NCBI GenBank assembly: GCA_963718915.1
Contig: CAVRAI010000003.1
Location: 360,001-392,000 of the forward strand
Length of the DNA: 32,000 nucleotides
Origin: an uncultured Chloroflexia bacterium
GTDB taxonomy: Bacteria > Chloroflexota > Ktedonobacteria > Ktedonobacterales > JADMIN01
Direction of reading: 5' to 3'
In this document: piece by piece, positions 1 to 27,525 of the stretch
Layout: each line of letters starts with the position of its first letter
How positions within the stretch are numbered: position 1 is the first letter of the stretch
Program-made: the position numbers and the translations under genes
The notes under the pieces: generated by a model
Seen by the model: only the letters and a program-made list of their open reading frames with translations
Databases searched by the model: none
What the model was told of the DNA's origin: nothing

Positions 1-1866
1 CGCGAAGTCGTTGAAGGTGGCGGCAGTAAATCCCAGCGCGAAGAGGCCCGCGTAGCCGGAGTGTGGCGCGGGCGGAGCGGCGTAGGGATCGTAGACACTG
101 CCCAAAAACTGGCCGTTGGCGTAGGCATAGTACATTGCCCCAACCACCACCAGCATCAGCCGATTCGGCACACCGACTCCGGTATGAATCGCGGCGCTGG
201 CACTACTTAAGGTAAGGAGACGCCATCCATCGTCGTTGTTATCGTCCGCGCGTGGGGGCTGTTCATGAGTGAATGACCACGTACCCTTAAGAGGATCGAC
301 ATCGAGGATAATCTCGTCGACCTGTCTCCCCTGGTCTGCCCCATCCTCAACACGAGCGACCAACCCAACATCGGCGCCATATTCGGATGCGTCTTGCACG
401 CGCACCGTGACTGCGACTGCCACGTCCGCATAGCGTGCGCCCTGCCAGACAACGTGATCACTGTAATTTGGACCGCTGTTGATGGTGTAGCCGCCATCCG
501 TGAACGCGAGGCTCATGGCATCTTTGTCCGATGTCGGCGTGTGAACCGGCCAGCCGTTTGTGTTACTGATCAGCGGATCGCTGAAGAGTGGCGTCTCGTT
601 GGCGACCCGCGCCGACCATGTGCTGAGATATGACTCGGCTTGATGATGCTCGAAGAGCCAGCCACCGCAGAGGCTTAGAATGACGACCAGCAGCGCCAGG
701 GCATTGAGCCAGTAGAAGCGGGGCCGCAGACGCACCGGTCGCGGCGGCCTGGCGCTCTCGACGCCGAACAGAGAGATAGGGGTGACGGAGCCGCCGTCGC
801 CTTCGCGCAGCGCAGTGAGCGCGGCCAGCAGCGATTTACGCGGATCGAGATCATTGGAATAGGCTTTCGGCTTTGACGAAATCGGCGCCTCCCACGCGCT
901 CAGCACATCCGCGCTGGCGGTCACATCGCGTAAAGGGCGGCCAGAGCGCGCTACTACTATCTGGCACAGCAGAGCGCTGGTGGAACGTTCGGCCACTCTG
1001 GCGCGCCAGGGCACTATCCATGCGAACGTCGCATCGTTGCTCAGGAGCAGATAACTATAGGCGGTGCCTGAACTGAATCCCGATTTATGGCGATGGATAC
1101 AGAAAGCCACGACATCCTGCCAGGCAAGCGTCTGCTCATGTCGCCGCCAGCTGCGCGGCTGCCAGCGGATGCCCCACTCGTCCACGGCAAGCAATCGCTG
1201 GCGCCGCATCGGCAGAAACGCGCCCCAGCCGTAGGACATGATCTGCGGCCCGGCGTAGAGGGTGATGATTTTTTCGCAGAAGAAGATGCCATAGACCAGC
1301 TGGAATACGCCCATAACGGTTGAGAGCGAATCGTAGTAGCTCGTCGCGGGCGCTCGGCGCAGAGAAATGACGGTAAGAGTAATCGCTCCGATGGTGAGGA
1401 TAAGGGCAACCACCGTGAAGACGACAGCGACTCTGCTGACACGCGCAAACCGGAGCGGCCATCGCCTCGTCGTGAGATCGGCTGATTGTTCAGGGGTGAG
1501 CGCTGGCGGCTGTTCCAATGCCACCGGCGCGATGGAATCGTTTCCTGCGAGCAGAGCGTTGCGCACGATGCGCGCGCCAAACCAGCGAGCCAGTGGTGGC
1601 GCAAACATCACTGTGAAAAGGACCGTCGTCAACGGCGCGATGATACATGTACAAAAGAAGATGACAAGAGAGAAGGTATCGGTTGGAAATGTGTCAATGG
1701 GCAGCAGCGCGCCATACTGAATGAGAAAGACGAGAAAGACGAGCCAGCCCCACGCCAATCCGATCCCCAGCCATTGTATAGCGCGTCCGCGCCGCCACGT
1801 CGCCTGATACGCCGCTGGCGACATCCCCAGCAGCGCGTTGAACTGGTCGCCCGAGGTTGTGGCCAT
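1..1866 (-). CDS. Partial CDS (C-terminus lies beyond the left edge): polytopic membrane protein with a C-terminal jelly-roll/lectin-like (DUF1080/LamG-like) domain
   Basis: The minus-strand frame is open from the ATG at 1866 to base 1 with no stop. It is absent from the supplied ORF track, apparently because no stop lies in the window. GAAAGAGGG sits ~10 nt upstream of the ATG. My translation begins MATTSGDQFNALLGMSPAAYQATWRRGRAIQWLGIGLAWGWLVFLVFLIQ and contains several hydrophobic helices. It ends with ...GGYTINSGPNYSDHVVWQGARYADVAVAVTVRV...NRLMLVVVGAMYYAYANGQFLGSVYD, which resembles a concanavalin-like fold. The domain name is inference. Confidence 0.7.
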   Translation of the reverse strand, partial: MATTSGDQFNALLGMSPAAYQATWRRGRAIQWLGIGLAWGWLVFLVFLIQYGALLPIDTFPTDTFSLVIFFCTCIIAPLTTVLFTVMFAPPLARWFGARIVRNALLAGNDSIAPVALEQPPALTPEQSADLTTRRWPLRFARVSRVAVVFTVVALILTIGAITLTVISLRRAPATSYYDSLSTVMGVFQLVYGIFFCEKIITLYAGPQIMSYGWGAFLPMRRQRLLAVDEWGIRWQPRSWRRHEQTLAWQDVVAFCIHRHKSGFSSGTAYSYLLLSNDATFAWIVPWRARVAERSTSALLCQIVVARSGRPLRDVTASADVLSAWEAPISSKPKAYSNDLDPRKSLLAALTALREGDGGSVTPISLFGVESARPPRPVRLRPRFYWLNALALLVVILSLCGGWLFEHHQAESYLSTWSARVANETPLFSDPLISNTNGWPVHTPTSDKDAMSLAFTDGGYTINSGPNYSDHVVWQGARYADVAVAVTVRVQDASEYGADVGLVARVEDGADQGRQVDEIILDVDPLKGTWSFTHEQPPRADDNNDDGWRLLTLSSASAAIHTGVGVPNRLMLVVVGAMYYAYANGQFLGSVYDPYAAPPAPHSGYAGLFALGFTAATFNDFA

Positions 1867-1990
1867 TCCTGGCTATTCCCTCTTTCACCCGCATACCAGC
1901 GCGCCTGCGTGCAGACCTTCCTTACCGCTAATAGCCCCCTCAGCATACACCGCTCGTCAACTGGAGAGTACGCTGCGCTCACCCGTAAAG

Positions 1991-2660
1991 TTATCCACAA
2001 CTTGCGAAGTTATCCACAATGATTGTGGATAGGTGGGCATTGGCGCGCAATGTCCCATTTTTCCAGCAGTTCGCCACAACAGGGAGATTTTCCAGCGCTG
2101 ATGAAGACTCACTGCCTCCGTGGATAACAGGCCTGAAAATGTGGACAACTCGCCCCTTGTGTGCATAAGTAGGCGCCCGTGTCATCCTCCAGATGACCCC
2201 ACTCACCTCCCCACACCCTGTGGATAACCGTGTGGAAAAGCGCCAAAGGAGGTGGATAGGTAGTGGGTAGCGCGTGGGGAGTCTTTAGATCAATGCAGCA
2301 TGCCATCATCCACATTGTGGGGAACTGTTGTTGAGAGATCGTGGATGGCTGTGGATGGGTCGCATCCTATCCACCTCGTTCGTGGATAGCCTGCGGCGCG
2401 TATCCACAGCCATCCACAATCGATGGGGATATTATCCCGCATTTGCCACGAACGCATCCACATTGAGAACGATGCCCAGACAATCGGTCAATGTGTGGCG
2501 CCCCTGAATTCAAGGGACATATCATGCGTTACGCAAACGTCGCTCACACTTATCCCCAGTATCCACCGGCCCTATTACTATGACTGCTATTTCTCTTAAT
2601 AAAAAAAGATCATAAGAGAAGGAACATCACCAGAGGCTGTGTTGTGTTGGGATATCCACA
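1991..2660. other. Dense DnaA-box cluster; putative chromosomal replication origin (oriC) or other DnaA-binding locus
   Basis: Perfect TTATCCACA at 1991-1999 (+), 2010-2018 (+) and 2219-2227 (-). One-mismatch boxes at 2024-2032, 2119-2127, 2140-2148, 2231-2239, 2306-2314, 2400-2408, 2550-2558 and 2652-2660. Two-mismatch boxes that keep the ATCCAC core at 2251-2259, 2350-2358, 2367-2375, 2381-2389, 2410-2418, 2454-2462 and 2559-2567. An AT-rich tract lies at 2573-2620 (cctattactatgactgctatttctcttaataaaaaaagatcataagagaa). I see no credible coding frame. Confidence 0.7.
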
Positions 2661-2849
2661 CAAAAGATTTCAGATCAGTGTCACACCCCATACAAGTAAG
2701 GCACATCGTCAAGACCATTACCAACGCGAAATATCAATTCGCAAAAAACACGAAGACCAGGTTCTGGGCGCCTGGCCTTCGAAGGGGAGGGGAGGAGATT
2801 GTGAATTGTCTCTCTGACCCAAGAATACATCGCACTGTTATATAGTCAC

Positions 2850-2886
2850 ATCAGGTAAACACCTGATATCGTATCAGGTAAACACC
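2850..2886. repeat. Two 14-bp direct repeats ATCAGGTAAACACC (2850-2863 and 2873-2886); the first lies within the palindrome TCAGGTAAACACCTGA (2851-2866)
   Basis: Read directly from the sequence. The repeats sit between the DnaA-box region and the stop codon (2894) of the minus-strand MarR-fusion gene. Confidence 0.8.
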
Positions 2887-2893
2887 CTAGTAT

Positions 2894-3991
2894 TCACCGG
2901 GTCGTGATGGAGACCGAGGCGACGGAGCTTGCGAGTTCGATGTCATAGCCTGGGGCGCTTCCATCGTAGTCGGCGCTTTGCATTCGCACGTCGTTGCCCA
3001 CAGCGGTGTACGATTGATCGTCGAAGACAAGTGAGGGCGCCCAGCCTTTGAGATGGACGCGCGCGGCGACCCCCGTGGGACGCCGAATGATGACCTCCGC
3101 CGCTCCGCCACTGATTCGTAGCGGAACCACACGCGAGGGCGCGGGGAGATTCAGCTGGAGCGCGCTCATTCCACCTTTGAATTCCAGCCCGATAAGATCA
3201 AGGCCACCTAGTTCCGCGCTGACGGCCGCAGCCCCGCCACGAAACTCGATCTGCCACGGAATGGCGGCGCTGAGTGTCACCTCCGCCGCGCGCTGACGCC
3301 AGTCGAGGAGCCGCGTGCGCCGCGAATAGCGGACGGTCACCACGCCGTTCCTGGCCTTCACCTCCGGCGCTGGCCCCTCGAAACGCGCGCGGTACAACTC
3401 GTCCATCCCAGCGTCCGCGCGCAGGGTGAGTTGTACCGCGCCAGTAGGGAAGATGAGCCGACCGCTCACCACATCTCCGAGTGGCTCGGCGAAGATCCCC
3501 TGCTCATCCGATGGCGCTTCACGCAACCGGATGATTTCTTGCTGGGAGCGCGCGTTGCTCTGTGCGAGGAACTCCAGAATGGTGGCGATCTGTTCGTCGT
3601 CGTAGTGTGAGGCGATCTCCTCCCACGCCTTCCCGATAGATGCGAAGACCGCATTGATCTCGCCCATGGTGTCCTTGCCTGGGACGAGCCGGACGATGAC
3701 CCGGCGGCCATCTTCGGGATCGCGCTCTCGGAGCACCAGCCCCGACTCCTCCAGTCGATTGAGCATCCCGGTGATTGCTCCGGTCGTAAGCCCTGTCAGC
3801 TCAGCAAGCTGACCTGCGGTTGTCGGGCTGGCGCTTTCCAGGATATCCATCACCTCGATATCCGTGATGGTCATCTCCGTCCGGGCCGCCACCGCCCGGT
3901 AGAACGATGCGCCAAGTCCAGTGAACCGCCGCAACTCGCGCGTAAGTTCCCCAAGCAACGCCACATGCGTTTTCTGGGTACCCCTTGACAT
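2894..3991 (-). CDS. MarR-family winged-helix regulator fused to a beta-rich LiaF/DUF4097-like (toast-rack type) C-terminal domain
   Basis: ORF 2894..4054. I prefer the internal ATG at 3991 (MSRGTQKTHV...), which has GGAGGA 7 nt upstream. The wHTH motif is GQLAELTGLTTGAITGMLNRLEESGLVLRERDPEDGRRVIVRL. The C-terminal half shows repeated GG-x-beta-strand units (FRGGAAAVSAELGGLDLIGLEFKGGMSALQLNL...ISGGAAEVIIRRPTGVAARVHLKG), typical of LiaF-type domains. The C-terminal domain name is inference. Confidence 0.8.
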   Translation of the reverse strand: MSRGTQKTHVALLGELTRELRRFTGLGASFYRAVAARTEMTITDIEVMDILESASPTTAGQLAELTGLTTGAITGMLNRLEESGLVLRERDPEDGRRVIVRLVPGKDTMGEINAVFASIGKAWEEIASHYDDEQIATILEFLAQSNARSQQEIIRLREAPSDEQGIFAEPLGDVVSGRLIFPTGAVQLTLRADAGMDELYRARFEGPAPEVKARNGVVTVRYSRRTRLLDWRQRAAEVTLSAAIPWQIEFRGGAAAVSAELGGLDLIGLEFKGGMSALQLNLPAPSRVVPLRISGGAAEVIIRRPTGVAARVHLKGWAPSLVFDDQSYTAVGNDVRMQSADYDGSAPGYDIELASSVASVSITTR

Positions 3992-4015
3992 GCTCACGTC
4001 CTCCATGTACATTGT

Positions 4016-4040
4016 TATTAACTTAGTTACTAAGTTAATA
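4016..4040. promoter_or_regulatory. 25-bp perfect palindrome TATTAACTTAG-tta-CTAAGTTAATA; candidate MarR-type operator in a divergent promoter region
   Basis: The 11-bp arms at 4016-4026 and 4030-4040 are exact reverse complements. The site lies in the AT-rich 138-bp gap between the regulator start (3991, -) and the ABC ATPase start (4130, +). Confidence 0.55.
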
Positions 4041-4129
4041 TAGATTTGCTTCATTTAGCTGCTAAACGTGATTTCTGGATTTCCCTTAGCGGCTCAGTGA
4101 ATTGCATTGTAGCATATGGAGGTGTCCCG

Positions 4130-5086
4130 ATGATGATCGAAACGCGGGGACTGCGCAAATCGTTTGGGGATCACGTGGTGCTCGATGGCATTGACCTGAA
4201 CGTGGCTGAGGGAACAATCTTTGCGCTGCTTGGCCCCAATGGCGCTGGCAAGACGACGGCGGTTCAGATCCTCTCGACGCTTATTAGCGCCGATGGCGGC
4301 AAGGTGCGGGTTGCGGGCCACGATCTCGACAGGGAGCCTGATGCGATCCGCGCGGCGATTGGCGTGACCGGACAGTTCTCGGCGGTAGATAATCTGCTCA
4401 CCGGCGAAGAGAATCTGCTGCTGATGGCAGACCTGCATCACCTGGAGCGACGCGAAGGCCGCAAGCGTGCGGCGGCGCTGCTCGAACGCTTCGAGTTGGT
4501 CGATGCGGCGAAGAAGAGGCCAGCCACCTACTCCGGCGGTATGCGACGTCGGCTTGACCTCGCGATGACCCTGGTTGGCGACCCGCGCATTATCTTCCTC
4601 GACGAGCCGACCACCGGCCTCGATCCGCGCAGCCGCCACACGATGTGGCAGATCATCCGCGAGCACGTGGCCGACGGGGTCACCATCTTCCTGACCACGC
4701 AGTATCTGGACGAGGCGGACGAGCTTGCCAACCAGATCGCGGTGCTCGATCACGGGAAGCTGGTTGCCGAAGGCGCGCCCGACGATCTGAAACGCCTCAT
4801 CCCCGGCGGCCATATCCGCCTCCAGTTCACCGACATGGGTGCGCTCGATGCGTCCGCCCGCGTTCTGGGCAAGGTGGCACGCGATGACAACGCGCTCAGC
4901 CTCCAGATTCCAACCGACGGCAGTGTCCGGTCGCTGCGGGCTGTGCTTGACCAGCTCGACCATGCGTCCATCAAAGTTGAGGGGGTATCGGTGCACACGC
5001 CCGACCTCGACGACGTCTTCTTCGCGCTCACGGGCCAGCCAAACACGCTGGATGCCGTTGAGACACAGAAAGGCGATAGACGATGA
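4130..5086 (+). CDS. ABC transporter ATP-binding protein, DrrA/ABC-2 exporter type
   Basis: Walker A GPNGAGKTT, signature YSGGMRRRL and Walker B IIFLDEPTTGLD. I chose the ATG at 4130 (MMIETRGLRKSFG), which is preceded by GGAGG. The longest ORF starts at 4046. Confidence 0.9.
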   Translation: MMIETRGLRKSFGDHVVLDGIDLNVAEGTIFALLGPNGAGKTTAVQILSTLISADGGKVRVAGHDLDREPDAIRAAIGVTGQFSAVDNLLTGEENLLLMADLHHLERREGRKRAAALLERFELVDAAKKRPATYSGGMRRRLDLAMTLVGDPRIIFLDEPTTGLDPRSRHTMWQIIREHVADGVTIFLTTQYLDEADELANQIAVLDHGKLVAEGAPDDLKRLIPGGHIRLQFTDMGALDASARVLGKVARDDNALSLQIPTDGSVRSLRAVLDQLDHASIKVEGVSVHTPDLDDVFFALTGQPNTLDAVETQKGDRR

Positions 5087-5898
5087 CCACGCTTCCATAT
5101 ACTTTGCGCGATTCGGCGACGATGCTGCGGCGCGATGTCCGGCACTCGCTGCGCAATCTCTCGATGACGATAAGTGGCCTGCTGACGCCGGTGGTCACGA
5201 TGGCGCTGTTCATCTATGTCTTTGGCGGAACGATGGGCGCTGGCCTTGGTGGTGTGGCGCATGGCGTCTCCTATGTCAATTACGTCGCGCCCGCGATTCT
5301 CATCATGACCATCGGCAGTGGCTGCTCGACAACCGCAGTGAACTTCTGTTCCGATATGGCCGAGGGCATTATCGCGCGCTTCCGCACGATGGCGATCTCG
5401 CGCGCCTCGGTGCTGACCGGGCTGGTCTTCGGCAGCCTGATTCGGACGATGATTACCATCGCCCTCGTCATCGGGGTTGCGTTGCTCATGGGCTTCCGCC
5501 CGTCCGCGAGCCTTGGCGGTTGGATTGCGGCGCTTGGCCTGCTTGCGTTCTTCACCCTCGCGCTCACGTGGATGGCGGTGGTGTTTGGGCTGATTGGCAA
5601 GACGCCAGAGGGGGCCAACGGCCTCTCCCTCATCTTCCAGCTCATTCTGCCGTTCACCAGCAGCGCGTTTGTCAACCCGCAGTCGATGCCAGCTGGAATC
5701 CGCTGGTTCGCCGAGTATCAGCCCTTCACTCCCGTCATCGACACACTGCGGGGCCTGCTGCTGGGTACCCCGGTTCCGAACAACAGCGCGATTCTGGCCA
5801 TCACCTGGTGTATCGTCCTCACCCTGGTCGGCTACCTGTGGGCGCGTGTGGTCTATAACCGCAACGCCGTGGCGAATAACCTCAGCTCCGTACGATAG
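5083..5898 (+). CDS. ABC-2 type transporter permease (DrrB-like)
   Basis: ATGA start/stop overlap with the upstream ATPase (5083-5086). The 271-aa protein has about 6 hydrophobic helices and an ABC-2 membrane-protein pattern. Confidence 0.9.
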   Translation: MTTLPYTLRDSATMLRRDVRHSLRNLSMTISGLLTPVVTMALFIYVFGGTMGAGLGGVAHGVSYVNYVAPAILIMTIGSGCSTTAVNFCSDMAEGIIARFRTMAISRASVLTGLVFGSLIRTMITIALVIGVALLMGFRPSASLGGWIAALGLLAFFTLALTWMAVVFGLIGKTPEGANGLSLIFQLILPFTSSAFVNPQSMPAGIRWFAEYQPFTPVIDTLRGLLLGTPVPNNSAILAITWCIVLTLVGYLWARVVYNRNAVANNLSSVR

Positions 5899-6101: not shown

Positions 6102-6941
6102 TCAGTTGTCGGAATTGTCGAATGTGCTACGAGCGGGACCACTCGTGCCGGACGTTTCGAGCGCATCGAGCACGCTGGCGATATCGGCGGCGACCTCCGT
6201 GAACATGTGTGGCAGCCATTCTTCTGGATGTGGCTCGCCCTGGTGATAGGGCGACTGGCGGCGCGCGCGGCCAAGTGTCATGTGGCCCTCACGATACTCC
6301 TCAGCCACATGAAAACCACTGACACCCTCGGGATCCCAGAGCGGTAGTTCCACCCGCTGTTGTAGCGTGAGCGCCTCGGCCTCCATGCTGGTATCACCCA
6401 ACGCCAGCGCGACGTTCGAGCGCGTCTCCACGGCGCGGCTGCTATGTTCCGATGCGCGGAGCTTGACCAGGCGCGCGATGGCCTGTAAGTTGATCGCGCC
6501 CAGATCAATATGCGCCAGTGGAAGGCTATAGGAGAGGTCTATGACCAGCGGCAGCACATTTTCCGTGTGCAGATGCGGACACGACTCATCTGGCTCGTGA
6601 AAGAACTCACAGACGCCTTCAGCGCCATCGATGGAGAGTGCGGTATCCAGCGGCCCCCAGGCGAATGAGAGCGTGCAGACGGCGCGATGCTCAGCCTCTT
6701 CGCACGGGCCAGGATGCAGCGTGCAGGCAAACTCGCGCTCCAGCGTCTGCGTGTTCAACCAGAATTCTGGATGAACCGAGAGGCCGGTTGCCTCCGCCGC
6801 GCTCAGGAACAATTCGGTGAGGTCTTCATAGGTAACCATAGTTGGGCAATCCCTCCCGCCGACGAACTGTCTGTGACCGCTATCCTGCCCAAACAACGAC
6901 ATTGCGGCTTCGCGGAACGCAGTGGGTTTATCATACAACAA
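6102..6941 (-). CDS. Hypothetical acidic protein with no recognisable domain
   Basis: 279-aa ORF with coding-like composition. An alternative start is the ATG at 6839 (MVTYEDLTELF...), with GGGAGGG about 11 nt upstream. I recognise no motifs. Confidence 0.6.
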   Translation of the reverse strand: MLYDKPTAFREAAMSLFGQDSGHRQFVGGRDCPTMVTYEDLTELFLSAAEATGLSVHPEFWLNTQTLEREFACTLHPGPCEEAEHRAVCTLSFAWGPLDTALSIDGAEGVCEFFHEPDESCPHLHTENVLPLVIDLSYSLPLAHIDLGAINLQAIARLVKLRASEHSSRAVETRSNVALALGDTSMEAEALTLQQRVELPLWDPEGVSGFHVAEEYREGHMTLGRARRQSPYHQGEPHPEEWLPHMFTEVAADIASVLDALETSGTSGPARSTFDNSDN

Positions 6942-7076
6942 TCGCTACCAAACACAGTATCGGTTGGCGCGTCGACGATACTCACGTCGGGTATGTCGTT
7001 GTTGCGATTCACCCACCGGAGCTTGATGGCCCAGGAGAATTTCCCCGGTCTGGCGTGGCGCTCTGACCATTCGCCG

Positions 7077-7450
7077 TAGCATGATGCAGGTTTACAAAAT
7101 AGGAGGGGCACGCCAGGAGGCGGGCGACTGAAGTCGCGCCTGAAGGGCCTCGCCTGCTGCGCCGCGCGCCTCCGCACGCTGCGCCTGCTGCGCCTGCTGC
7201 GCCTGCTGCGCCTGCTGCGCCTGCTGCGCCTGCTGCGCCTGCTGCGCCTGCTGCGCCTGCTGCGCACGCTCCGCCACGCAACCCGCCTGCGCGGGGTGCC
7301 CAGACCCCTGCGCCAACGGCTCGCGCGTTGGGACACGGTCTGGGAGTCCGCGACGACGGACTTGGTGGCCGCAGGCCCCAAAGGCGCGGTTTGAACCGCC
7401 CGCGCCCCTCCGCGCATGTCCCTCGTACTTTCTAAAACTACATCATGCTA
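7077..7450. mobile_element. MITE-like foldback element (~370 bp) with ~80-bp imperfect terminal inverted repeats and TA at both flanks
   Basis: The left arm reads (ta)gcatgatgcaggtttacaaaataggaggggcacgccaggaggcgggcg...gcgcctgaagggcc. The reverse complement of the right arm reads (ta)gcatgatgtagttttagaaagtacgagggacatgcgcggaggggcgcgggcg...gcgcctttggggcc. By eye the arms are about 75% identical. There is no transposase ORF, and the centre carries a tandem repeat. Confidence 0.45.
7181..7263. repeat. Tandem repeat (GCGCCTGCT) x ~9
   Basis: Perfect 9-bp periodicity read directly from the sequence. It generates the spurious QAQ / RRS / AAG repeat ORFs in the track. Confidence 0.95.
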
Positions 7451-9433: not shown

Positions 9434-9466
9434 GGATACGCTCAGGATACGCTCAGGATACGCTCA
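9434..9466. repeat. Tandem repeat (GGATACGCTCA) x3 overlapping the stop codon of the ThiF-fusion gene
   Basis: Three perfect 11-bp units at 9434-9444, 9445-9455 and 9456-9466. Each carries TGA on the minus strand, so all three frames are closed. Confidence 0.95.
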
Positions 9467-11461
9467 GGACTGGCCCGACTGACCCACAGAAGGAATTGGC
9501 GGGCCATATGGCGGTGAGGCATACCAGCGCGGCGGGATTTGCGCCTCTTGCAGGAACATGGGCTGGGGCAGGTTCGCATTCCTCGCCAACTTTGCCACCT
9601 CGATGATCGCGCTCCGTGTGGATTCTGCCGGGCTGGCCAGCGCGCCATTCAGTTGCAGGCGGAAAGGCGCAATCGCGCGCAGGTCGGCGGTCGCCATGAC
9701 GAATGGCCAGAAATAGCCTTCCGCGTTGGTTGGCGGGATCCAGAAATCGTCTTCGGGCGCCGCCTCCGAGACGACGACCTGCGCCCAGGGGGCATAGAGC
9801 ATCGGAATATTGACCAGCTCCATCAGATTGCGCGCCTCAGGCCCGCTGCTCCCAAGCGCCACGTCGATGCCCAGCCGGGGGTTGGTCAGCACCTCCGTCA
9901 GCGCGTAGCATACCTCGAAGACCGCAATCCCTGTCAGCGGCGTTTTGATGGCCTGATTCCGCATCAAATGGGCTATCTCACGCATGCGCTCGACCGGTAT
10001 CGCTTGAATCGCGGGCAGCGACTCGAAGACGCCCCGGCCAAAGAGTTCGGTCTCGGCGGGGAACACCGCGCGTTCCTGGTCGGCCAGCGCCAGTGGTCGG
10101 CGGCGCTTTACCAGCAATCCGGTTGGCTCGCTATAGAGCGGCCCCCTGGGAGGCACAATTGAGCAACAGGCAAGGATTTGCCCCGAAGCCGTGCCACAGA
10201 GGACGTGAATCGCATTTTCCGCCAGATCAGCCAGCGTGGGGTCGGTGCGATAGCCGTGCTGCGCAATCTTCGAGGTGTCGTAGAGGCCCGCGAGGGCATA
10301 TTGATCGATTCTGAACTCGCCAAATTCGTTGAAGGCGTTCGCCGACAGCATATCGTGACGGATCGCGTAGGACCATAACCCCGACGGACGGTTGCGCAGG
10401 TAGAGGACATCCTTCCCCCTGGCGGCAAGCGCGGTGAGCGCAGGATAGCGCGCGCTCAACTGGCGGCTGCGCAGATAGACAAGAAAGTCGTCATCGGACT
10501 TCTTCGGCGCGGGCATCCGCAGTATTCCGGGGCTGGCGCTGGCTTTGCGTGTCTCAGGCGTCGCGCTCACCGCGGCTGGCGCTGGCAGCGTTGTGGCGGT
10601 ATCGCCTGGTTCTTCATCCGCTGCCGCTTCAACCTGCTCATCACTCGGTGGAGCGCTGGACGCCGCGGCGGATGGTTCGAGCAGGATGCGCAGATCGATG
10701 TGAGAAGCCGCTGGCGTGACCCGAACCGGCTCGTTGGCGGCGAGCGCCGCCGCCGCCCGCACCACCATCGCCGCGGTGAGCGATGCGGCCGGGCCAAGTT
10801 GCGGCTCGCAGGGCCACTGCGCGCCGTTGGTCTGGAAATCCGCCAGTGTCGTGGCGAGGTAGTCTGGCACGCCAACAGGCGACCCTCCGAAGGCGCTCGC
10901 GACGAGCCGCCCAGACACATCGGCGGCGTTATGGGTAGCCGCTGGATCCACACCCAGCATCTCTTCCAGGGGCATAGAATCCGCCGTGAAGACGAACACC
11001 GCGCCACCCCAGCCCAGATTCAGCGGGATGATCATCGGAACACCACGGGCGCGGGCATCGCGTGCCAGCGCGAACAGCGCCGGATTGTCATAGTCGATGG
11101 AGTTGATGACGATATTCGCCCGATCAAGTGAGGCGACATACGAGTCATTCTCGATGAATTCAGGGAGGACGATTACCTCAACATCTGGCCGGATATCGCG
11201 CAGCAGTTCCGCCGTGGCGGCGGCCTTGTTGGCGCCAATCTGGTGGCGAAAGAACGCCTGCCGATTCAGGTTCGATAGCTCGACGCTATCGCCATCCGCC
11301 AGGATGAACGAGCCGAACCCGGTGCGACATGCGAGCGCGACGATAGTACTACTGAGTCCGGCGCCAGCGGCAAACAGACAGGTATGATCGAGTATGTGCT
11401 GGATATCGGGTGTGATGAAGGCCCAGTTGCGTGAAAACAAATCATCGGAATCACTTGTCAT
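9464..11461 (-). CDS. ThiF/MoeB/E1-like adenylyltransferase domain fused, through an Ala/Pro/Glu-rich linker, to an uncharacterised ~360-aa C-terminal domain (possibly a LuxI/FeeM-like acyl-synthase fold)
   Basis: AGGAG lies about 8 nt upstream of the ATG at 11461. The N-terminal motifs are LFAAGAGLSSTIVALACRTGFGSFILADGDSVELSNLNRQ, GANKAAA and INSIDYDNPALF, which match the nucleotide loop, Arg finger and Asp of E1-like enzymes. There are no CxxC zinc pairs. The C-terminal pattern is ...FRIDQYALAGLYD...HVLCGTASGQILACCSIVP...ERMREIAHLMRNQ...GIDVALGSSGPEARNLMELVNIPM. Its family assignment is tentative. Confidence 0.85.
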   Translation of the reverse strand: MTSDSDDLFSRNWAFITPDIQHILDHTCLFAAGAGLSSTIVALACRTGFGSFILADGDSVELSNLNRQAFFRHQIGANKAAATAELLRDIRPDVEVIVLPEFIENDSYVASLDRANIVINSIDYDNPALFALARDARARGVPMIIPLNLGWGGAVFVFTADSMPLEEMLGVDPAATHNAADVSGRLVASAFGGSPVGVPDYLATTLADFQTNGAQWPCEPQLGPAASLTAAMVVRAAAALAANEPVRVTPAASHIDLRILLEPSAAASSAPPSDEQVEAAADEEPGDTATTLPAPAAVSATPETRKASASPGILRMPAPKKSDDDFLVYLRSRQLSARYPALTALAARGKDVLYLRNRPSGLWSYAIRHDMLSANAFNEFGEFRIDQYALAGLYDTSKIAQHGYRTDPTLADLAENAIHVLCGTASGQILACCSIVPPRGPLYSEPTGLLVKRRRPLALADQERAVFPAETELFGRGVFESLPAIQAIPVERMREIAHLMRNQAIKTPLTGIAVFEVCYALTEVLTNPRLGIDVALGSSGPEARNLMELVNIPMLYAPWAQVVVSEAAPEDDFWIPPTNAEGYFWPFVMATADLRAIAPFRLQLNGALASPAESTRSAIIEVAKLARNANLPQPMFLQEAQIPPRWYASPPYGPPIPSVGQSGQS

Positions 11462-11816
11462 GTCGTACTCTCCTGCACAAGACGATACGGGTTATCCTTT
11501 ACCTGCATCTAGTTCCCATGACTAGCGGCTTTCCGTGAGCGCGCCAGAGGTGTAAAGAGGTGTGTGGCTGACATGGATGACATGGATGACAGTCAGCACT
11601 CGCATTCTATGAGCGCATCGGTGAGGTGTCAACTAAAGCAAGAACACAAATATCGACTGGCCACGAAAGATTGAGGCTTGACGAAAGTACTATAGGAGGC
11701 GTAGGCTGATCGTGGCCCAGATGCCATTATGGGGGATGCTTGAGCAGGGACACGCATCAAGAGTCGCTTGTTCTACAGGGATGTCTTTATGCGGGCGCCT
11801 GCAACAAGGAGGAAAA

Positions 11817-12836
11817 ATGACTGCCGAGGTGGTGCGAGCGACTCGACCGAGTGTCAAGCAACAAGTTGGGGATCTGTATGCGAAGTACGGTCAGCGAAAA
11901 CCGATGGGAGTGAGCGCGCCCAGCCCGTGGCTGCCTCACTATTTTCTGCACAGAACGTTTCTTGGCGATCAGGATCTGCTTATTATCTTCAATACCAAAC
12001 GCTGCAAGTACCGTTGTCACTTCTGTCAGCTTCCGGCGAAAAGTTCGCCAACGCTTATTCCGGGCAGTGAGATTGTCTCACAGTTCTCGTATGTGGTGAA
12101 AGAACTGAAACACTCGCTGAGTGTAATAGATCGCCTCACCTTCAGCAACGAAGGGTCTGTGCTCGACGCGGCGACATTTCCTACCGAGGCCATGCTTGAA
12201 ATCGCCGAAGGTATCAACGAGCTACGCCGCGTGCGCACGCTCGTGCTGGAGACGCGCCTCGAGTTTGTCGATACCGATGTGCTGGCACAGATTCGCGAGG
12301 TAGCTCCTCGCATCACCTTCAATATCCTGACCGGCTTCGAGACGCACGATCCCTACATTCGCGACAAAGTGTTATTCAAACGCGAGCCGCTCGATGTCTT
12401 CGAGAGCGGGCTGGATCGGGTGGCTGAGGCAGGCGCGCAACTGACGACCTACGTGCTCTTCAAGCCGCGCTGGGATATGACCGACGAGGAGGCCGTCGCC
12501 GAGGCGGAATCCAGCATTGATTACCTGGTGGAGCAGACGAAGGCGCGCGGGCTTGGCCTCTCGGTGCGACTCAATCCCATGTATGCCGCGGATGGATCGC
12601 GGTGGGCGAAAAAGGCGCACACCTCGTCGGACTACCAGCCACCGCGGCTGACCGATGTGATGCGCGTGGCCGAGAAGAAACGCCGCGAGGGTGTCAATAT
12701 CTACATTGGCATGTCCACCGAGGGTCTCGACGACGGCTCGAACTACATGGGGCGTGAGGACTACTCCATGAAGCTCATCAGGCCGGTTCTGCTCTTCAAC
12801 GGCGGCAAGATCAATTCATTCAACGGCTACATCTAG
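11817..12836 (+). CDS. Radical SAM enzyme (single CX3CX2C cluster, no SPASM/twitch Cys motifs)
   Basis: CKYRCHFC is encoded at 12003-12026. I chose the ATG at 11817, preceded by AAGGAGG-aaaa; the longest ORF starts at GTG 11712. There are no other Cys residues downstream. Core motifs are FSNEGSVLD, VLETRLEFV and GFETHD, and the C-terminal SDYQPPRL reminds me of a TIGR01210/RaSEA-like layout (from memory, low confidence). Confidence 0.85.
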   Translation: MTAEVVRATRPSVKQQVGDLYAKYGQRKPMGVSAPSPWLPHYFLHRTFLGDQDLLIIFNTKRCKYRCHFCQLPAKSSPTLIPGSEIVSQFSYVVKELKHSLSVIDRLTFSNEGSVLDAATFPTEAMLEIAEGINELRRVRTLVLETRLEFVDTDVLAQIREVAPRITFNILTGFETHDPYIRDKVLFKREPLDVFESGLDRVAEAGAQLTTYVLFKPRWDMTDEEAVAEAESSIDYLVEQTKARGLGLSVRLNPMYAADGSRWAKKAHTSSDYQPPRLTDVMRVAEKKRREGVNIYIGMSTEGLDDGSNYMGREDYSMKLIRPVLLFNGGKINSFNGYI

Positions 12837-12848
12837 GTCATCCAGGTC

Positions 12849-13376
12849 ATGGCAAGCGCTAACGGCGACGATACCAACAAGACAACGACGATGATGCAGC
12901 CGACGACGCTGGATGGGCTGCTCGCGGAGGGCGGTGTCCGCTGCTTCGCGGGCGGCCTGGAGGTTGAGGTGCGGCGCGCATGGATCGTCGCGGGCGAGGA
13001 TCGTCTCGCCTACACGGCCATCGTGCGTCTGGTCGAATGTTGCCGCGAGTGGCACTGGCGGTCCGATATCCTCCCGCATGTGGGCGGCGCGCCGCTGGAC
13101 TCGATCACCAAATCCTTCGCGGCGGAGTTTACGCATCCAATAGCCCTTGGGAGCCTGCTGCGCATCACGCATCAGGTGATCGACGCGCGCCCCCGCAGCT
13201 ACCAGCTTCGCTTTGAGCTGACCACGCTACAGCCCGAACAGCTTTGCGCCACGCTGGAGATGGTCAGCGTCTTCTATGACCCCACGCGCGAAGCCGTCGC
13301 CGAGCCATCACCCGCCGTGGTGGCCTACCTCCGCTCCCACATCTCTCCCAATCTGCCAGCCGACGACAACTCGTAG
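12849..13376 (+). CDS. Hotdog-fold (4HBT/thioesterase-like) protein
   Basis: It starts 12 nt after the radical SAM stop, which suggests an operon. The 175-aa protein has the pattern VRRAWIVAGEDRLAYTAIVRLVECCREWHW...LLRITHQVIDARPRSYQLRFELT...ATLEMVSVFYD, consistent with the central helix plus beta-sheet of a hotdog fold. Inference from pattern only. Confidence 0.6.
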   Translation: MASANGDDTNKTTTMMQPTTLDGLLAEGGVRCFAGGLEVEVRRAWIVAGEDRLAYTAIVRLVECCREWHWRSDILPHVGGAPLDSITKSFAAEFTHPIALGSLLRITHQVIDARPRSYQLRFELTTLQPEQLCATLEMVSVFYDPTREAVAEPSPAVVAYLRSHISPNLPADDNS

Positions 13377-25255: not shown

Positions 25256-25630
25256 TCAACAACCTCGCCCAAGACGAGCGCGCAGCAAGCGAATCATCGC
25301 CACCTCGATCAGCGTTTCGCTGGTCTGGACCTTGCGTTCGTAGTCTTTGCTCATTTGGGGATTCCGGGAGAGCCATCCAAACATCCGCTCGACGACCCAT
25401 CGTTTCGGTTGCACCCGAAAGCCACGTATCCCCGCCGTTCGCTCCACGACCCGCGGATCCCAATTCCCCCTGTGCTTTGCACCACTTGGCGAGTTCCTGG
25501 CCACGCTACGCTGCATCCGCCAAATATGCTTCAGACGAGGAACGAAGTATTTCAGCCCCGCTAGCGGTCGACGTGCTCCTTGCGCGTCGTACATGTCGGT
25601 GGGCGTAACATACACGGAGAGGGGTCGCAA
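25256..25630 (-). pseudogene. Decayed C-terminal remnant of an IS5/IS4-superfamily (DDE_Tnp_1) transposase
   Basis: FRVQPKRWVVERMFGWLSRNPQMSKDYERKVQTSETLIEVAMIRLLRARL is the typical IS5-family C-terminus. Upstream, the conserved ADAAYRGQELAKWC block is in another frame and carries an in-frame TAG where Tyr is expected (YLADAA*RGQELAKWCKAQG). The N-terminal two thirds of the transposase are absent. Confidence 0.75.
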
Positions 25631-25681
25631 TTAGTTCTTAATTCTGTTGTATTTTATCCTGTTTCGTGGTATTTTCTGAGC

Positions 25682-26281
25682 ATGAAACTCAGCGCCTACG
25701 CCAAACAGGTCGGCGTCACCTACAAAACGGCTTGGCAATGGTGGAAAGATGGGCGATTGGACGCCTATCAATTGCCCACGGGAACGGTAATTGTGCGAGA
25801 ATCGCGCCTGGCTCCTGCGGGTGTGGCGCTTTATGCCCGGGTATCTAGCGCTGACCAGAAAGCAGATGCCACACGCCAACTAGAGCACTTGCGCACGTAT
25901 GCGGCGGCGCGCGGTTACCAAGTGGTTGCCGAGGCAAGAGAGATTGCGTCTGGCTTGAATGATGAGCGGCCTAAACTGACGAAACTGCTCACCAATCCGC
26001 AGATTGGTGTCATTGTGGTGGAACATCGGGACCGGCTGACGCGCTTTGGCTATGGCTACATTGCCACACTGCTGGAAACCCAGGGGCGGCGGGTAGAGGC
26101 GATTTTTCCTGCCGATACTGGTGATGGCTTGGTCGATGATTTTGTGGCGATCATCACGAGCATGGCGGCACGTATCTATGGACGCCGCAACAGTAAACGC
26201 CGGGCGGAGCGGATTAAGGCATGCGTTGAACATGTCATGCAAGTTGAACATGTCATGCAAGAGGAAGACCGAGAGGCCTAG
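25682..26281 (+). CDS. tnpA: IS607-family transposase TnpA (MerR-like HTH plus serine recombinase catalytic domain)
   Basis: The N-terminus reads MKLSAYAKQVGVTYKTAWQWWKDGRL. The catalytic Ser motif is ALYARVSSADQK, followed by VIVVEHRDRLTRFGYGYI. Confidence 0.9.
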   Translation: MKLSAYAKQVGVTYKTAWQWWKDGRLDAYQLPTGTVIVRESRLAPAGVALYARVSSADQKADATRQLEHLRTYAAARGYQVVAEAREIASGLNDERPKLTKLLTNPQIGVIVVEHRDRLTRFGYGYIATLLETQGRRVEAIFPADTGDGLVDDFVAIITSMAARIYGRRNSKRRAERIKACVEHVMQVEHVMQEEDREA

Positions 26282-26283
26282 TG

Positions 26284-27525
26284 ATGCCGATTGTCCGCGC
26301 CTACAAGGCTGAACTAGGCCTGAATAACGCGCAAGTCACCGCCTGCAAGAAACATGCGGGGGCGGCGCGTTGGGCCTATAATTGGGGCTTGCGGCGCAAA
26401 CAAGAGGCCTACGAGCAAACGGGCACGACGCCCACCGCGATAGACTTGCATCGGGAACTGAACGCGCTCAAAAAGAGCGCAGTACCCTGGATGTATGAAG
26501 TGAGCAAGTGCGCGCCACAAGAGGCATTGCGCAACTTGGATACGGCCTATATCAACTTCTTGCGCCGCTGCGGGCAAAAGAAGGCAGGACTGTGGAAGGG
26601 GAAACCGGGCTACCCCAAGCCCAAGACCAAGAAGAAGGGACTGGGCAGTTTCCGGCTCACGGGCTCGATTGTGGTGGGTACCCACGCGATTCAGTTGCCA
26701 CGTTTGGGACGCCTGCGTCTGAAGGAGCGCGGCTATCTCCCTATCAGCGGAGTGAAAATCCTCTCGGCCACGGTCAGTGAACAGGGCGGACACTGGTATG
26801 TCGCAGTGCACGTGGAGCAAGAGCAGGACATCCCCGTCAATAGCGGGCCAGTGGTGGGTGTGGACTTGGGTATCAAGACGCTCGCCACCATCTCAGACGG
26901 CACGCAGCATGAAACCGTTGCTAATCCCAAGCATCTGAAACGTCACCAACGTAAACTCAAGCACGTGCAGCGGGCGGTCTCCCGCAAACAGAAGGGGAGT
27001 CAGAATCGCAAGAAAGCCGTCGCCACCCTCGGCAAAGACCATCGTCACGTCGCTAATCAGCGCGCCAACACGTTGCATCAATTGACCGCGAGACTGGCGA
27101 AAACCAAGTCAGTGATCGTGATCGAAGACCTCAACGTGGCGGGCATGCTCAAAAATCATCACTTGGCGCAAGCAATTGCCGATGTCGGCTTTGCGGAGTT
27201 TCGTCGGCAACTCGCCTACAAAGCAGCGTGGTATGGCAGTCGTGTGGTGGTGGTGAGTCGCTGGGAACCCTCCTCGCGGCGTTGCTGGCGGTGTGGCCAT
27301 GTGAAAGCGGAATTGCTGCTGGCTGAACGCATGTACCACTGTGAAGTCTGCGGCCTCACCATAGACCGCGACCTGAACGCTGCGATCAATTTAAGCAAAC
27401 TGGCCGACAGTTCGCCGGACAGTCTAAACGCCTGTGGAGAGGCACGCACTGGCTTGTCGCGTGAGCGCCAAGTGAAACGATCCCCGATGAAGCAGGAACC
27501 AGATACGTTCGATGCTTCGGCATAA
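26284..27525 (+). CDS. tnpB: TnpB (OrfB_IS605-type RuvC nuclease with zinc ribbon); catalytic residues appear intact
   Basis: RuvC-I is VVGVDLGIK, RuvC-II is VIVIEDLNV, the zinc ribbon is CWRCGH...CEVCG, and RuvC-III is IDRDLNAAINL. Confidence 0.9.
   Translation: MPIVRAYKAELGLNNAQVTACKKHAGAARWAYNWGLRRKQEAYEQTGTTPTAIDLHRELNALKKSAVPWMYEVSKCAPQEALRNLDTAYINFLRRCGQKKAGLWKGKPGYPKPKTKKKGLGSFRLTGSIVVGTHAIQLPRLGRLRLKERGYLPISGVKILSATVSEQGGHWYVAVHVEQEQDIPVNSGPVVGVDLGIKTLATISDGTQHETVANPKHLKRHQRKLKHVQRAVSRKQKGSQNRKKAVATLGKDHRHVANQRANTLHQLTARLAKTKSVIVIEDLNVAGMLKNHHLAQAIADVGFAEFRRQLAYKAAWYGSRVVVVSRWEPSSRRCWRCGHVKAELLLAERMYHCEVCGLTIDRDLNAAINLSKLADSSPDSLNACGEARTGLSRERQVKRSPMKQEPDTFDASA

Follow-up and report, generated by a model that had tools for sequence, protein, structure and literature searches.

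A conserved DnaA-box cluster with a predicted unwinding module, located apart from dnaA and dnaN, is a candidate replication origin in soil Ktedonobacterales

The Escherichia coli origin oriC consists of an AT-rich DNA unwinding element (DUE) situated 5' of the R1-type DnaA box TGTGGATAA and followed by boxes in both orientations, the so-called 13-mer/R1 arrangement. In silico analysis of a 32,000-nucleotide stretch of contig CAVRAI010000003.1 (assembly GCA_963718915.1, positions 360,001 to 392,000; hereafter the window), which comes from an uncultured Chloroflexia bacterium of the Ktedonobacterales, revealed a dense cluster of DnaA boxes in a non-coding gap between positions 1867 and 2893. 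Judged from its sequence, this gap is very probably a DnaA-dependent replication origin of some replicon. Examples of origins distant from dnaA and dnaN exist in E. coli, some cyanobacteria and Chlamydiae (PMC3245932; PMC4009838). No sequence-level description of a Ktedonobacteria replication origin was found in the literature.

The basal unwinding system (BUS) of bacterial origins has been defined as a DnaA box with up to two mismatches, an optional second box with up to four, a spacer of at most 16 bp (mode 13) and at least three DnaA-trios of the form NAN (Pelliciari 2021, PMC8287927). For oriC as a whole, the Weigel preprint lists five features: a DUE, a reverse-oriented box beside the DUE, an upstream gene that is transcribed away, a contiguous box array, and trios. 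The published layout runs from the DUE over the trios to the box 5'-TGTGNAWAA (Weigel preprint). Four of the five features were found in the present gap, namely the DUE, the DUE-proximal reverse box, the contiguous array and the trios.

DnaA boxes were counted with the consensus TTATCCACA, against which mismatches were scored. The region from 1985 to 2665 (681 bp) contained 22 boxes, three of them perfect, nine with one mismatch and ten with two, and the ATCCAC core was kept in 7 of the 10 two-mismatch boxes. A preliminary description of this DNA had given the same numbers of perfect and core-retaining boxes, but only eight with one mismatch; likewise, the stretch it had put at about 670 bp is indeed non-coding, but the gap spans 1027 bp. 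The boxes lie in both orientations, as it had stated. In the window, which has a G+C content of 60.6%, 12 of the 15 boxes with at most one mismatch fall in this region, while the remaining 31 kb hold three one-mismatch boxes and not a single perfect one. Dinucleotide-preserving shuffles of the window (n = 100) yielded 3.1 such boxes on average and seven at most, and never reached the observed 15, so that the claim of a density beyond chance was borne out. An artefact of chance or composition was rejected on the grounds of these shuffles and of the conservation of the boxes in 17 or more independent loci; the likelihood we leave to it is negligible.

The boxes are distributed over a distal triplet, a main array, a pair of twin boxes and a single box on the far side of the DUE (Table 1). 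The distal triplet was almost invariant among the aligned orthologues and consists of very strong boxes adjoining the promoter region of the left gene. This promoter region is probably represented by the conserved block CTCCAGTTGACGAGCGGTGTATGCTGA; a scan for consensus promoters did not call the block. In the half of the array far from the DUE (2119–2259), all six boxes are on the minus strand, with a spacing of mostly about 10 or 20 bp (12–21 bp) and one gap of 59 bp. In the near half (2306–2567), twin boxes and head-to-head pairs are mixed, and the majority is oriented toward the DUE. Taken from 1991 to 2462, the array is contiguous with the DUE-proximal twin boxes at 2550–2567, and the 87 bp in between hold a conserved palindrome (2501–2516), possibly a site for an accessory protein inside the origin.

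Table 1. Features of the non-coding gap and its two flanking genes, in window coordinates. For single boxes the first position and the strand are given.
Feature	Position	Strand	Sequence, basis or remarks
Left gene, lineage-specific membrane protein	1–1866	-	start at 1866, cut off by the window edge; >622 aa, 639 aa in the 100% identical full record P0121 on a contig of 910,535 bp
Conserved block	1941–1967	-	CTCCAGTTGACGAGCGGTGTATGCTGA; between boxes and left gene; conserved in two alignments
Distal box triplet	1991–2032		TTATCCACA (1991+), TTATCCACA (2010+), CTATCCACA (2024-); last two form a head-to-head pair
Perfect boxes	1991+, 2010+, 2219-		TTATCCACA
One-mismatch boxes	2024-, 2119-, 2140-, 2160-, 2231-, 2306+, 2400+, 2550+, 2652+		
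Main DnaA-box array	2070–2462	both	box scan and conservation
Weak box of the array	2070	+	poorly conserved
Same-orientation run of the array	2119, 2140, 2160, 2219 (perfect), 2231, 2251	-	
Mixed and twin boxes of the array	2306+, 2316-, 2350-, 2367+, 2381-, 2400+, 2410+, 2424-, 2454+		
Conserved palindrome	2501–2516		CCCCTGAATTCAAGGG; between array and unwinding module
Abutting twin boxes	2550–2567	+	TTATCCCCA (2550, one mismatch), GTATCCACC (2559, two mismatches)
GC spacer	2568–2571		GGCC; GGGC in relatives
Nine DnaA-trios	2572–2598	-	3'-GAT AAT GAT ACT GAC GAT AAA GAG AAT-5'; plus-strand letters CTA TTA CTA TGA CTG CTA TTT CTC TTA
AT-rich tract, candidate DUE together with the trio region	2599–2640		stability and A+T content
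Box on the far side of the DUE	2652–2660	+	ATATCCACA; invariant in orthologues
C-rich motif, hairpin and short T run	2743–2797	-	C-rich motif CTCCTCCCCTCCCC (2784–2797), then hairpin (2751–2781) and T run; conserved; points toward the DUE
Two 18-bp palindromes	2850–2890		ATCAGGT-N4-ACCTGAT (2850–2867, 2873–2890), adjoining the motif TATATAAC; conservation
Right gene, MarR-family fusion regulator	2894–4054	-	Pfam; 365 aa from the probable true start

On the minus strand, the twin boxes read GGTGGATAC TGGGGATAA and thus have the R1-type orientation. The order on this strand (AT tract, trios, GGCC, GGTGGATAC, TGGGGATAA) agrees with the published layout. The GGCC spacer fits the "GC-rich region" of about 4 bp in the BUS definition. 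A central A is present in eight of the nine trios, and three trios match GAT perfectly; the distance from the better, one-mismatch box to the first trio is 13 bp, the 4-bp GC element included. Twin boxes, spacer and trios together satisfy the BUS definition, and a spacer of 13 bp is the modal value in that study (PMC8287927). When both strands of the 32-kb window (64 kb in total) were scanned, a trio run of such quality was encountered only once, at 2572–2598.

The DUE was judged by its nearest-neighbour stability, while the Weigel preprint prescribes stress-induced duplex destabilization (SIDD). Within the surrounding 2.5 kb, stability was lowest in the 50-mer at 2572–2621; its free energy was -53.7 kcal/mol compared to a window mean of -75.8 (standard deviation 5.3), which places it about four standard deviations from the mean and at the 99.94th percentile of instability in the window. 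The A+T content of 2573–2640 was 67.6%, compared to 39.4% in the window as a whole. Both values support the earlier suggestion that the AT-rich tract beside the cluster could serve as the unwinding element. Folding the DUE region as single-stranded DNA gave nothing beyond the shuffled controls. The most AT-rich 40–50 bp of the window are located at 4008–4058, in the divergent promoter gap between the MarR and ABC genes, and are without DnaA boxes.

Conservation was assessed in a footprint alignment of six distinct orthologues that are 66–75% identical to the window. Column conservation was 92.8% in the DnaA boxes versus 72.7% in the spacers between them, and the trio region was the best-conserved part of the locus with 97.5%. 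The twin boxes were invariant save one position. In the AT tract column conservation was 61.5%, and the richness in A+T was retained in the relatives. The most conserved block reads TAAGAGAAATAGCAGTCATAGTAATAGGGCCGGTGGATACTGGGGATAAGT on the minus strand.

At least 17 loci from independent metagenome-assembled genomes (MAGs) and metagenomes hold the box cluster within one gene neighbourhood. The gene order is YkuD, YjgF, amino-acid permease, DZR protein and left gene on one side of the putative origin, and a luciferase-like gene and/or MarR-ABC, hyp279, hyp496, ThiF-like and radical SAM on the other. Homologues of the left protein were found directly downstream of the same cluster in L005/L006 (76% amino acid identity) and L007–L009 (58%). 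A scan of a genome collection with the distal double-box pattern retrieved three loci in Ktedonobacterales/Chloroflexia MAGs (L013, L021, L031), a metagenome scan with the twin-box/trio block retrieved nine further ones (L036–L044), and L045–L047 were reached through more distant left-gene homologues (47% and 42% identity). Loci spanning the gap contained 10–13 boxes with at most one mismatch in the best 700 bp or in the gap, three of them perfect; the exception was L038, a 1-kb contig with seven. Homologues of the flanking proteins were labelled Ktedonobacterales, Ktedonosporobacter or Chloroflexota at source. The hyp279 family is widely conserved in Ktedonobacterales (543 homologues). Near a remoter hyp279 homologue (67% identity, L048–L051) no box cluster was observed, and the association of cluster and neighbourhood is therefore specific to this clade. 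An apparent lack of MarR synteny in L002 and L003 was rejected, as L003 ends at the edge of the origin block and L002 is probably a paralogous locus.

GC skew, given here in the orientation of the window, changed sign at the cluster. Left flanks had values of -0.02 to -0.048 over 4–11 kb in nine relatives (L007, L013, L031, L039, L040, L042, L043, L045, and L046), and right flanks had values of +0.01 to +0.033 over 5–29 kb in the window, L021, L036, L044, and L045. The sign was independent of gene orientation. In the right flank of the window, the plus-strand skew was +0.028 for plus-strand genes and +0.015 for minus-strand genes, and left-flank genes pointing toward the origin still carried the replication-type sign. 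In L045, the sole relative with two long flanks, the jump across the cluster was +0.065, compared to a standard deviation of 0.0115 and a maximum of 0.026 between adjacent 8-kb blocks. A switch in this direction, from negative to positive, is the mark of an origin and not of a terminus. Together with the unwinding module, the box footprints and the conserved neighbourhood, this local switch upholds the view of the preliminary description that the cluster is oriC-like and lies away from dnaA and dnaN.

The boxes could also serve DnaA without starting replication, either as a sink or recharging site comparable to datA, DARS or the DnaA-box clusters (DBCs) of Bacillus subtilis, or as a DnaA-controlled promoter region of the left gene. 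B. subtilis has box clusters outside its origin that regulate their neighbours, and datA has five high-affinity boxes (PMC3245932). The present cluster, too, is not beside dnaA, its DUE-side gene does not show the orientation listed in the Weigel preprint, and the distal triplet is located just upstream of the promoter-like block of the left gene. However, its 22 boxes accompany a module of twin boxes, spacer, trios and DUE with correct orientation and spacing, the skew changes sign at the locus, and a sink that binds double-stranded DNA only gives no reason why the trios should be best conserved. We consider a non-origin function unlikely. The datA- or DARS-like sink that had been put forward earlier is not supported, since neither a DnaA-trio/DUE module nor a skew switch is known from such loci. 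At datA and DARS2, function requires an IHF (or Fis) site, for which no reliable consensus exists in the present phylum.

A further idea is that of a second or downgraded origin that exists on the same chromosome beside a dnaA-proximal oriC. A layout with two origins is known from P. aeruginosa and is a prediction for most Halomonadaceae, one origin having been "downgraded" repeatedly (preprint 10.1101/2025.08.05.668638). Nevertheless, the unwinding module of the present locus is under strong purifying selection, and the skew switch argues that forks truly diverge here. Such a second origin seems highly improbable.

If the gap functions as a DnaA-dependent origin, we infer from its elements the following course of binding, unwinding and firing. 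DnaA would take the three boxes that are perfect and those near-perfect ones that are conserved, and would then fill the array of about 20 boxes cooperatively. From the twin boxes at 2550–2567, a filament of ATP-DnaA would extend across GGCC onto the nine lower-strand trios (2572–2598), and would stretch and open the adjoining AT-rich tract (to about 2640). The helicase would be loaded at the opened tract, and forks would leave both ways.

Concerning the replicon served, we tentatively regard the locus as the main-chromosome oriC of a soil Ktedonobacterales lineage in which the origin is separated from dnaA and dnaN, an assignment for which the sequence gives a little less than an even chance. 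Several observations weigh against it. The genes dnaA, dnaN, parA, and parB were absent from up to 29 kb on the right and about 10 kb on the left according to Pfam, tblastn and the flanks of the relatives, and the surrounding 40 kb contain accessory-type genes and an insertion sequence (IS) element but no recognisable housekeeping genes. In every locus, transcription of the DUE-side gene (MarR, or in relatives the luciferase-like gene) runs toward the DUE, while in all experimentally confirmed origins it is directed away from it (Weigel preprint). As evidence the skew is local, extending over no more than 29 kb, and its null sample is small; moreover, the skew was about zero in the first 8 kb to the right of the cluster in the window, and slightly negative in the short right flanks (0.85–3.7 kb) of L031, L037, and L040. 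In L037 and L040 this negative stretch carries the MarR-ABC genes. Finally, in cultured Ktedonobacteria dnaA, dnaN, parA, and parB form one locus on chromosome-like contigs (PMC13289182). If the chromosomal origin is situated at that locus, the present one must be something else; the accessible part of the report is silent on the position of the chromosomal origin relative to dnaA and on the make-up of secondary origins.

For tblastn, DnaA and DnaN of E. coli and Soj of B. subtilis served as queries, and the targets were the window and 22 related loci. The positive control was an unrelated locus (L012), where these queries picked up dnaA, boxes and dnaN. With this working control, and with Pfam on the long open reading frames (ORFs), neither dnaA nor dnaN was detected in the window, in accordance with the earlier remark that this pair does not flank the cluster. 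Pfam assigned the long ORFs to an ABC-2 exporter, a ThiF-like E1 enzyme, a radical-SAM protein, a thioesterase, a BNR-repeat protein, an ECF sigma factor with its anti-sigma factor, an S9 peptidase, a molybdopterin oxidoreductase, DegV, a trehalose phosphatase and an IS607-type unit.

A further candidate, made serious by recent literature, is the origin of a megabase, chromid-like secondary replicon. Such a replicon would lack its own initiator, and the chromosomal DnaA would fire it by way of a complete oriC-type module. In a 2026 study of Ktedonobacteria, 10 of 20 genomes carried secondary replicons of 1.5–3.5 Mb without a canonical Rep gene; their V-shaped skew extrema coincided with the origins predicted by Ori-Finder, parA was present near the predicted origin, parB was absent, and genes for transport and regulation as well as mobile genes were enriched (PMC13289182). 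The criterion of that study for a chromid-like contig is a normalised marker-gene completeness of at most 0.2. The window fits such a replicon in lacking dnaA, dnaN, and parB and in carrying accessory-type genes and an IS607-type element. All of the origin-type evidence (conservation, trios, instability, and skew) applies to it equally, and there is a precedent in the DnaA-bound origin reported for the second chromosome of Cyanothece 51142 (PMC4674748). A Rep-family domain was found neither in the window nor in the annotated flanks of the relatives, and the only repeats at the putative origin were the DnaA boxes, without iterons.

On the other hand, the neighbourhood recurs in many samples, even where the left gene is only 42% identical, while chromid-like contigs share few, strain-specific orthologues (PMC13289182). 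The lineage has a G+C content of about 60%, whereas such replicons were shown in families with 49–54%. The gap and the left protein had no similarity to any of 72,556 plasmids, the only plasmid matches of the window being ABC-transporter hits to Streptomyces plasmids. With Soj as tblastn query no parA appeared within 29 kb on the right and about 10 kb on the left, a weak argument because "near" in the 2026 study is meant on the megabase scale. We regard a secondary-replicon origin as a serious possibility, though a less likely one than the chromosomal oriC. The preliminary description had offered a choice between a relocated origin and a DnaA sink; this choice misses the third option, and a relocated chromosomal origin is still a conjecture. 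Stable synteny across many samples, the wide conservation of the hyp279 family and the lack of parA in the sequence seen led us to favour the chromosome over a chromid, if with somewhat less than even confidence.

The left gene is transcribed away from the box array, and in relatives the corresponding box cluster is bordered by its homologues, whose proteins share 42–76% of their amino acids with that of the window. It appears to be dynamic: L013 contains two tandem paralogues (1748–5716), L031 only a 28-amino-acid remnant (1566–1649), and the identity of the left protein to that of the window ranges from 30% to 76% while the neighbours hold 82–94%. The membrane protein and the MarR-fusion regulator named earlier as flanking genes were both recovered, but the attribute "lectin-like" could not be verified for the former, which had no match in Pfam or NCBIfam. 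On the right, the MarR gene is transcribed toward the DUE, and some relatives carry a luciferase-like gene instead. More precisely, the MarR/ABC-2 exporter cassette (2894–5898) is present in some relatives and replaced by a luciferase-like monooxygenase in others, as seen by comparing L021, L036, and L044; L003 carries both sets of genes, the window has no luciferase-like gene, and some relatives have no MarR-ABC. This pattern points to gene gain and loss directly at the edge of the putative origin.

Between the DUE and the right gene, a block of about 150 bp (2743–2890) was conserved in every orthologous locus, regardless of the neighbouring gene. From its sequence it may be a terminator or insulator of minus-strand transcription toward the DUE, a small RNA, or a protein-binding, centromere-like site. 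In the hairpin (2751–2781) the pairs were retained without compensatory changes, and the T tail was weak in relatives. The small-RNA reading was rejected, as there was no covariation, the T tail was weak and a sigma-70 consensus promoter was missing. A short plus-strand ORF in the block was rejected as well because its frame was not kept in L013. In the gap as a whole, no Rfam match at gathering score or at an E-value of at most 1 and no tRNA were found. Several independent metagenome contigs break within the origin block or at its edge, with the end of L003 and the starts of L005 and L039 at or near the C-rich motif, and L007–L009 start about 50 bp beyond the distal box triplet. The breaks may reflect strain variation in the spacers or a repeat.

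Farther to the right, the region 9464–13376 encodes the ThiF-like E1 enzyme (665 aa), much of whose C-terminal part is long and unassigned, the radical-SAM protein (a weak RaSEA-like match below cut-off) and the thioesterase. Together they may form a small cassette for modification or biosynthesis, and relatives retain two of the genes, ThiF-like and radical-SAM, next to the putative origin. The gap between hyp279 and hyp496 contains about 13 copies of the 9-bp tandem repeat CGCCTGCTG (7151–7265), which yields a spurious ORF with Arg/Ser repeats (6803–7417). The IS607-type unit (25580–27525) consists of a serine recombinase (Resolvase domain) followed by TnpB (OrfB_IS605/Cas12f-like TNB domain), and immediately before tnpB the 3'-terminal part of the recombinase ORF contains an 18-bp tandem duplication (26225–26261).

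Ktedonobacteria are a class abundant in soil, with genomes of 5–13 Mb and the newly reported Rep-less megabase replicons, and the present locus offers a conserved candidate origin at base resolution, including boxes, trios and DUE. Used as a DNA signature, the twin-box/trio block retrieved the same locus in further soil metagenome contigs, and it could contribute to anchoring peak-to-trough estimates of growth rate. Should the locus be a working origin, the rule of a DUE-side gene transcribed away would have a natural exception. Should it be the origin of a secondary replicon, one cell would run two DnaA-dependent origins on two replicons, the coordination of which would become testable; this would also account for the replication of the Rep-less replicons reported in 2026 and would be considerably more interesting.

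Among known systems, the E. coli oriC, located in the mnmG/gidA-mioC gap about 42 kb from dnaA, is likewise an origin apart from that gene (PMC3245932), and its DUE-R1 orientation is the same as at the present locus. It differs in having about 11 boxes in 0.25 kb compared to about 22 in 0.68 kb here, and a weak BUS score compared to abutting twin boxes with strong trios. In addition, the present locus has no 13-mer or GATC system, and the DUE-side gene that points away in E. coli points toward the origin here. The BUS in incC of B. subtilis (DnaA-boxes 6/7 and trios) resembles the present module in its tandem boxes, short GC spacer, at least three NAN trios and AT-rich DNA, as well as in the preference for GAT nearest the boxes and the modal 13-bp spacer. 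In B. subtilis, however, the origin lies between dnaA and dnaN, neither of which is found within tens of kilobases here.

Actinomycete origins sit in the gap between dnaA and dnaN. An origin of about 0.9 kb with about 30 predicted boxes is considered exceptional and typical of Streptomyces, and directly adjacent twin boxes are typical of Actinomycetota (Weigel preprint). The present locus shares with these origins its length, its richness in boxes and the twin boxes beside the DUE, and Ktedonobacteria are described as actinomycete-like. Nevertheless, these origins have no sequence homology to the present locus and belong to another phylum.

To our knowledge, datA, DARS1/2 and the DBCs have few boxes, no trio/DUE module and no replication start. 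They resemble the present locus as box clusters outside the dnaA-linked origin, some of which control their neighbours (PMC3245932), while an unwinding module and a skew switch set the present locus apart. In Orientia, where oriC is predicted next to hemE, the cluster is also away from both indicator genes, owing to translocation of either oriC or the genes (PMC4009838); the neighbours and the lineage are different, and the evidence here is comparative and local instead of whole-genome skew. The linear chromosome of Cyanothece 51142 (PMC4674748) and the chromid-like contigs of Ktedonobacteria (PMC13289182) share with the present locus a reported or predicted DnaA-box origin without dnaA in an accessory-type neighbourhood. 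The chromid-like contigs differ in having parA near the predicted origin (PMC13289182), which is not found nearby here. The present locus combines two unusual traits, a Streptomyces-like load of boxes and an inverted relation to the flanking transcription.

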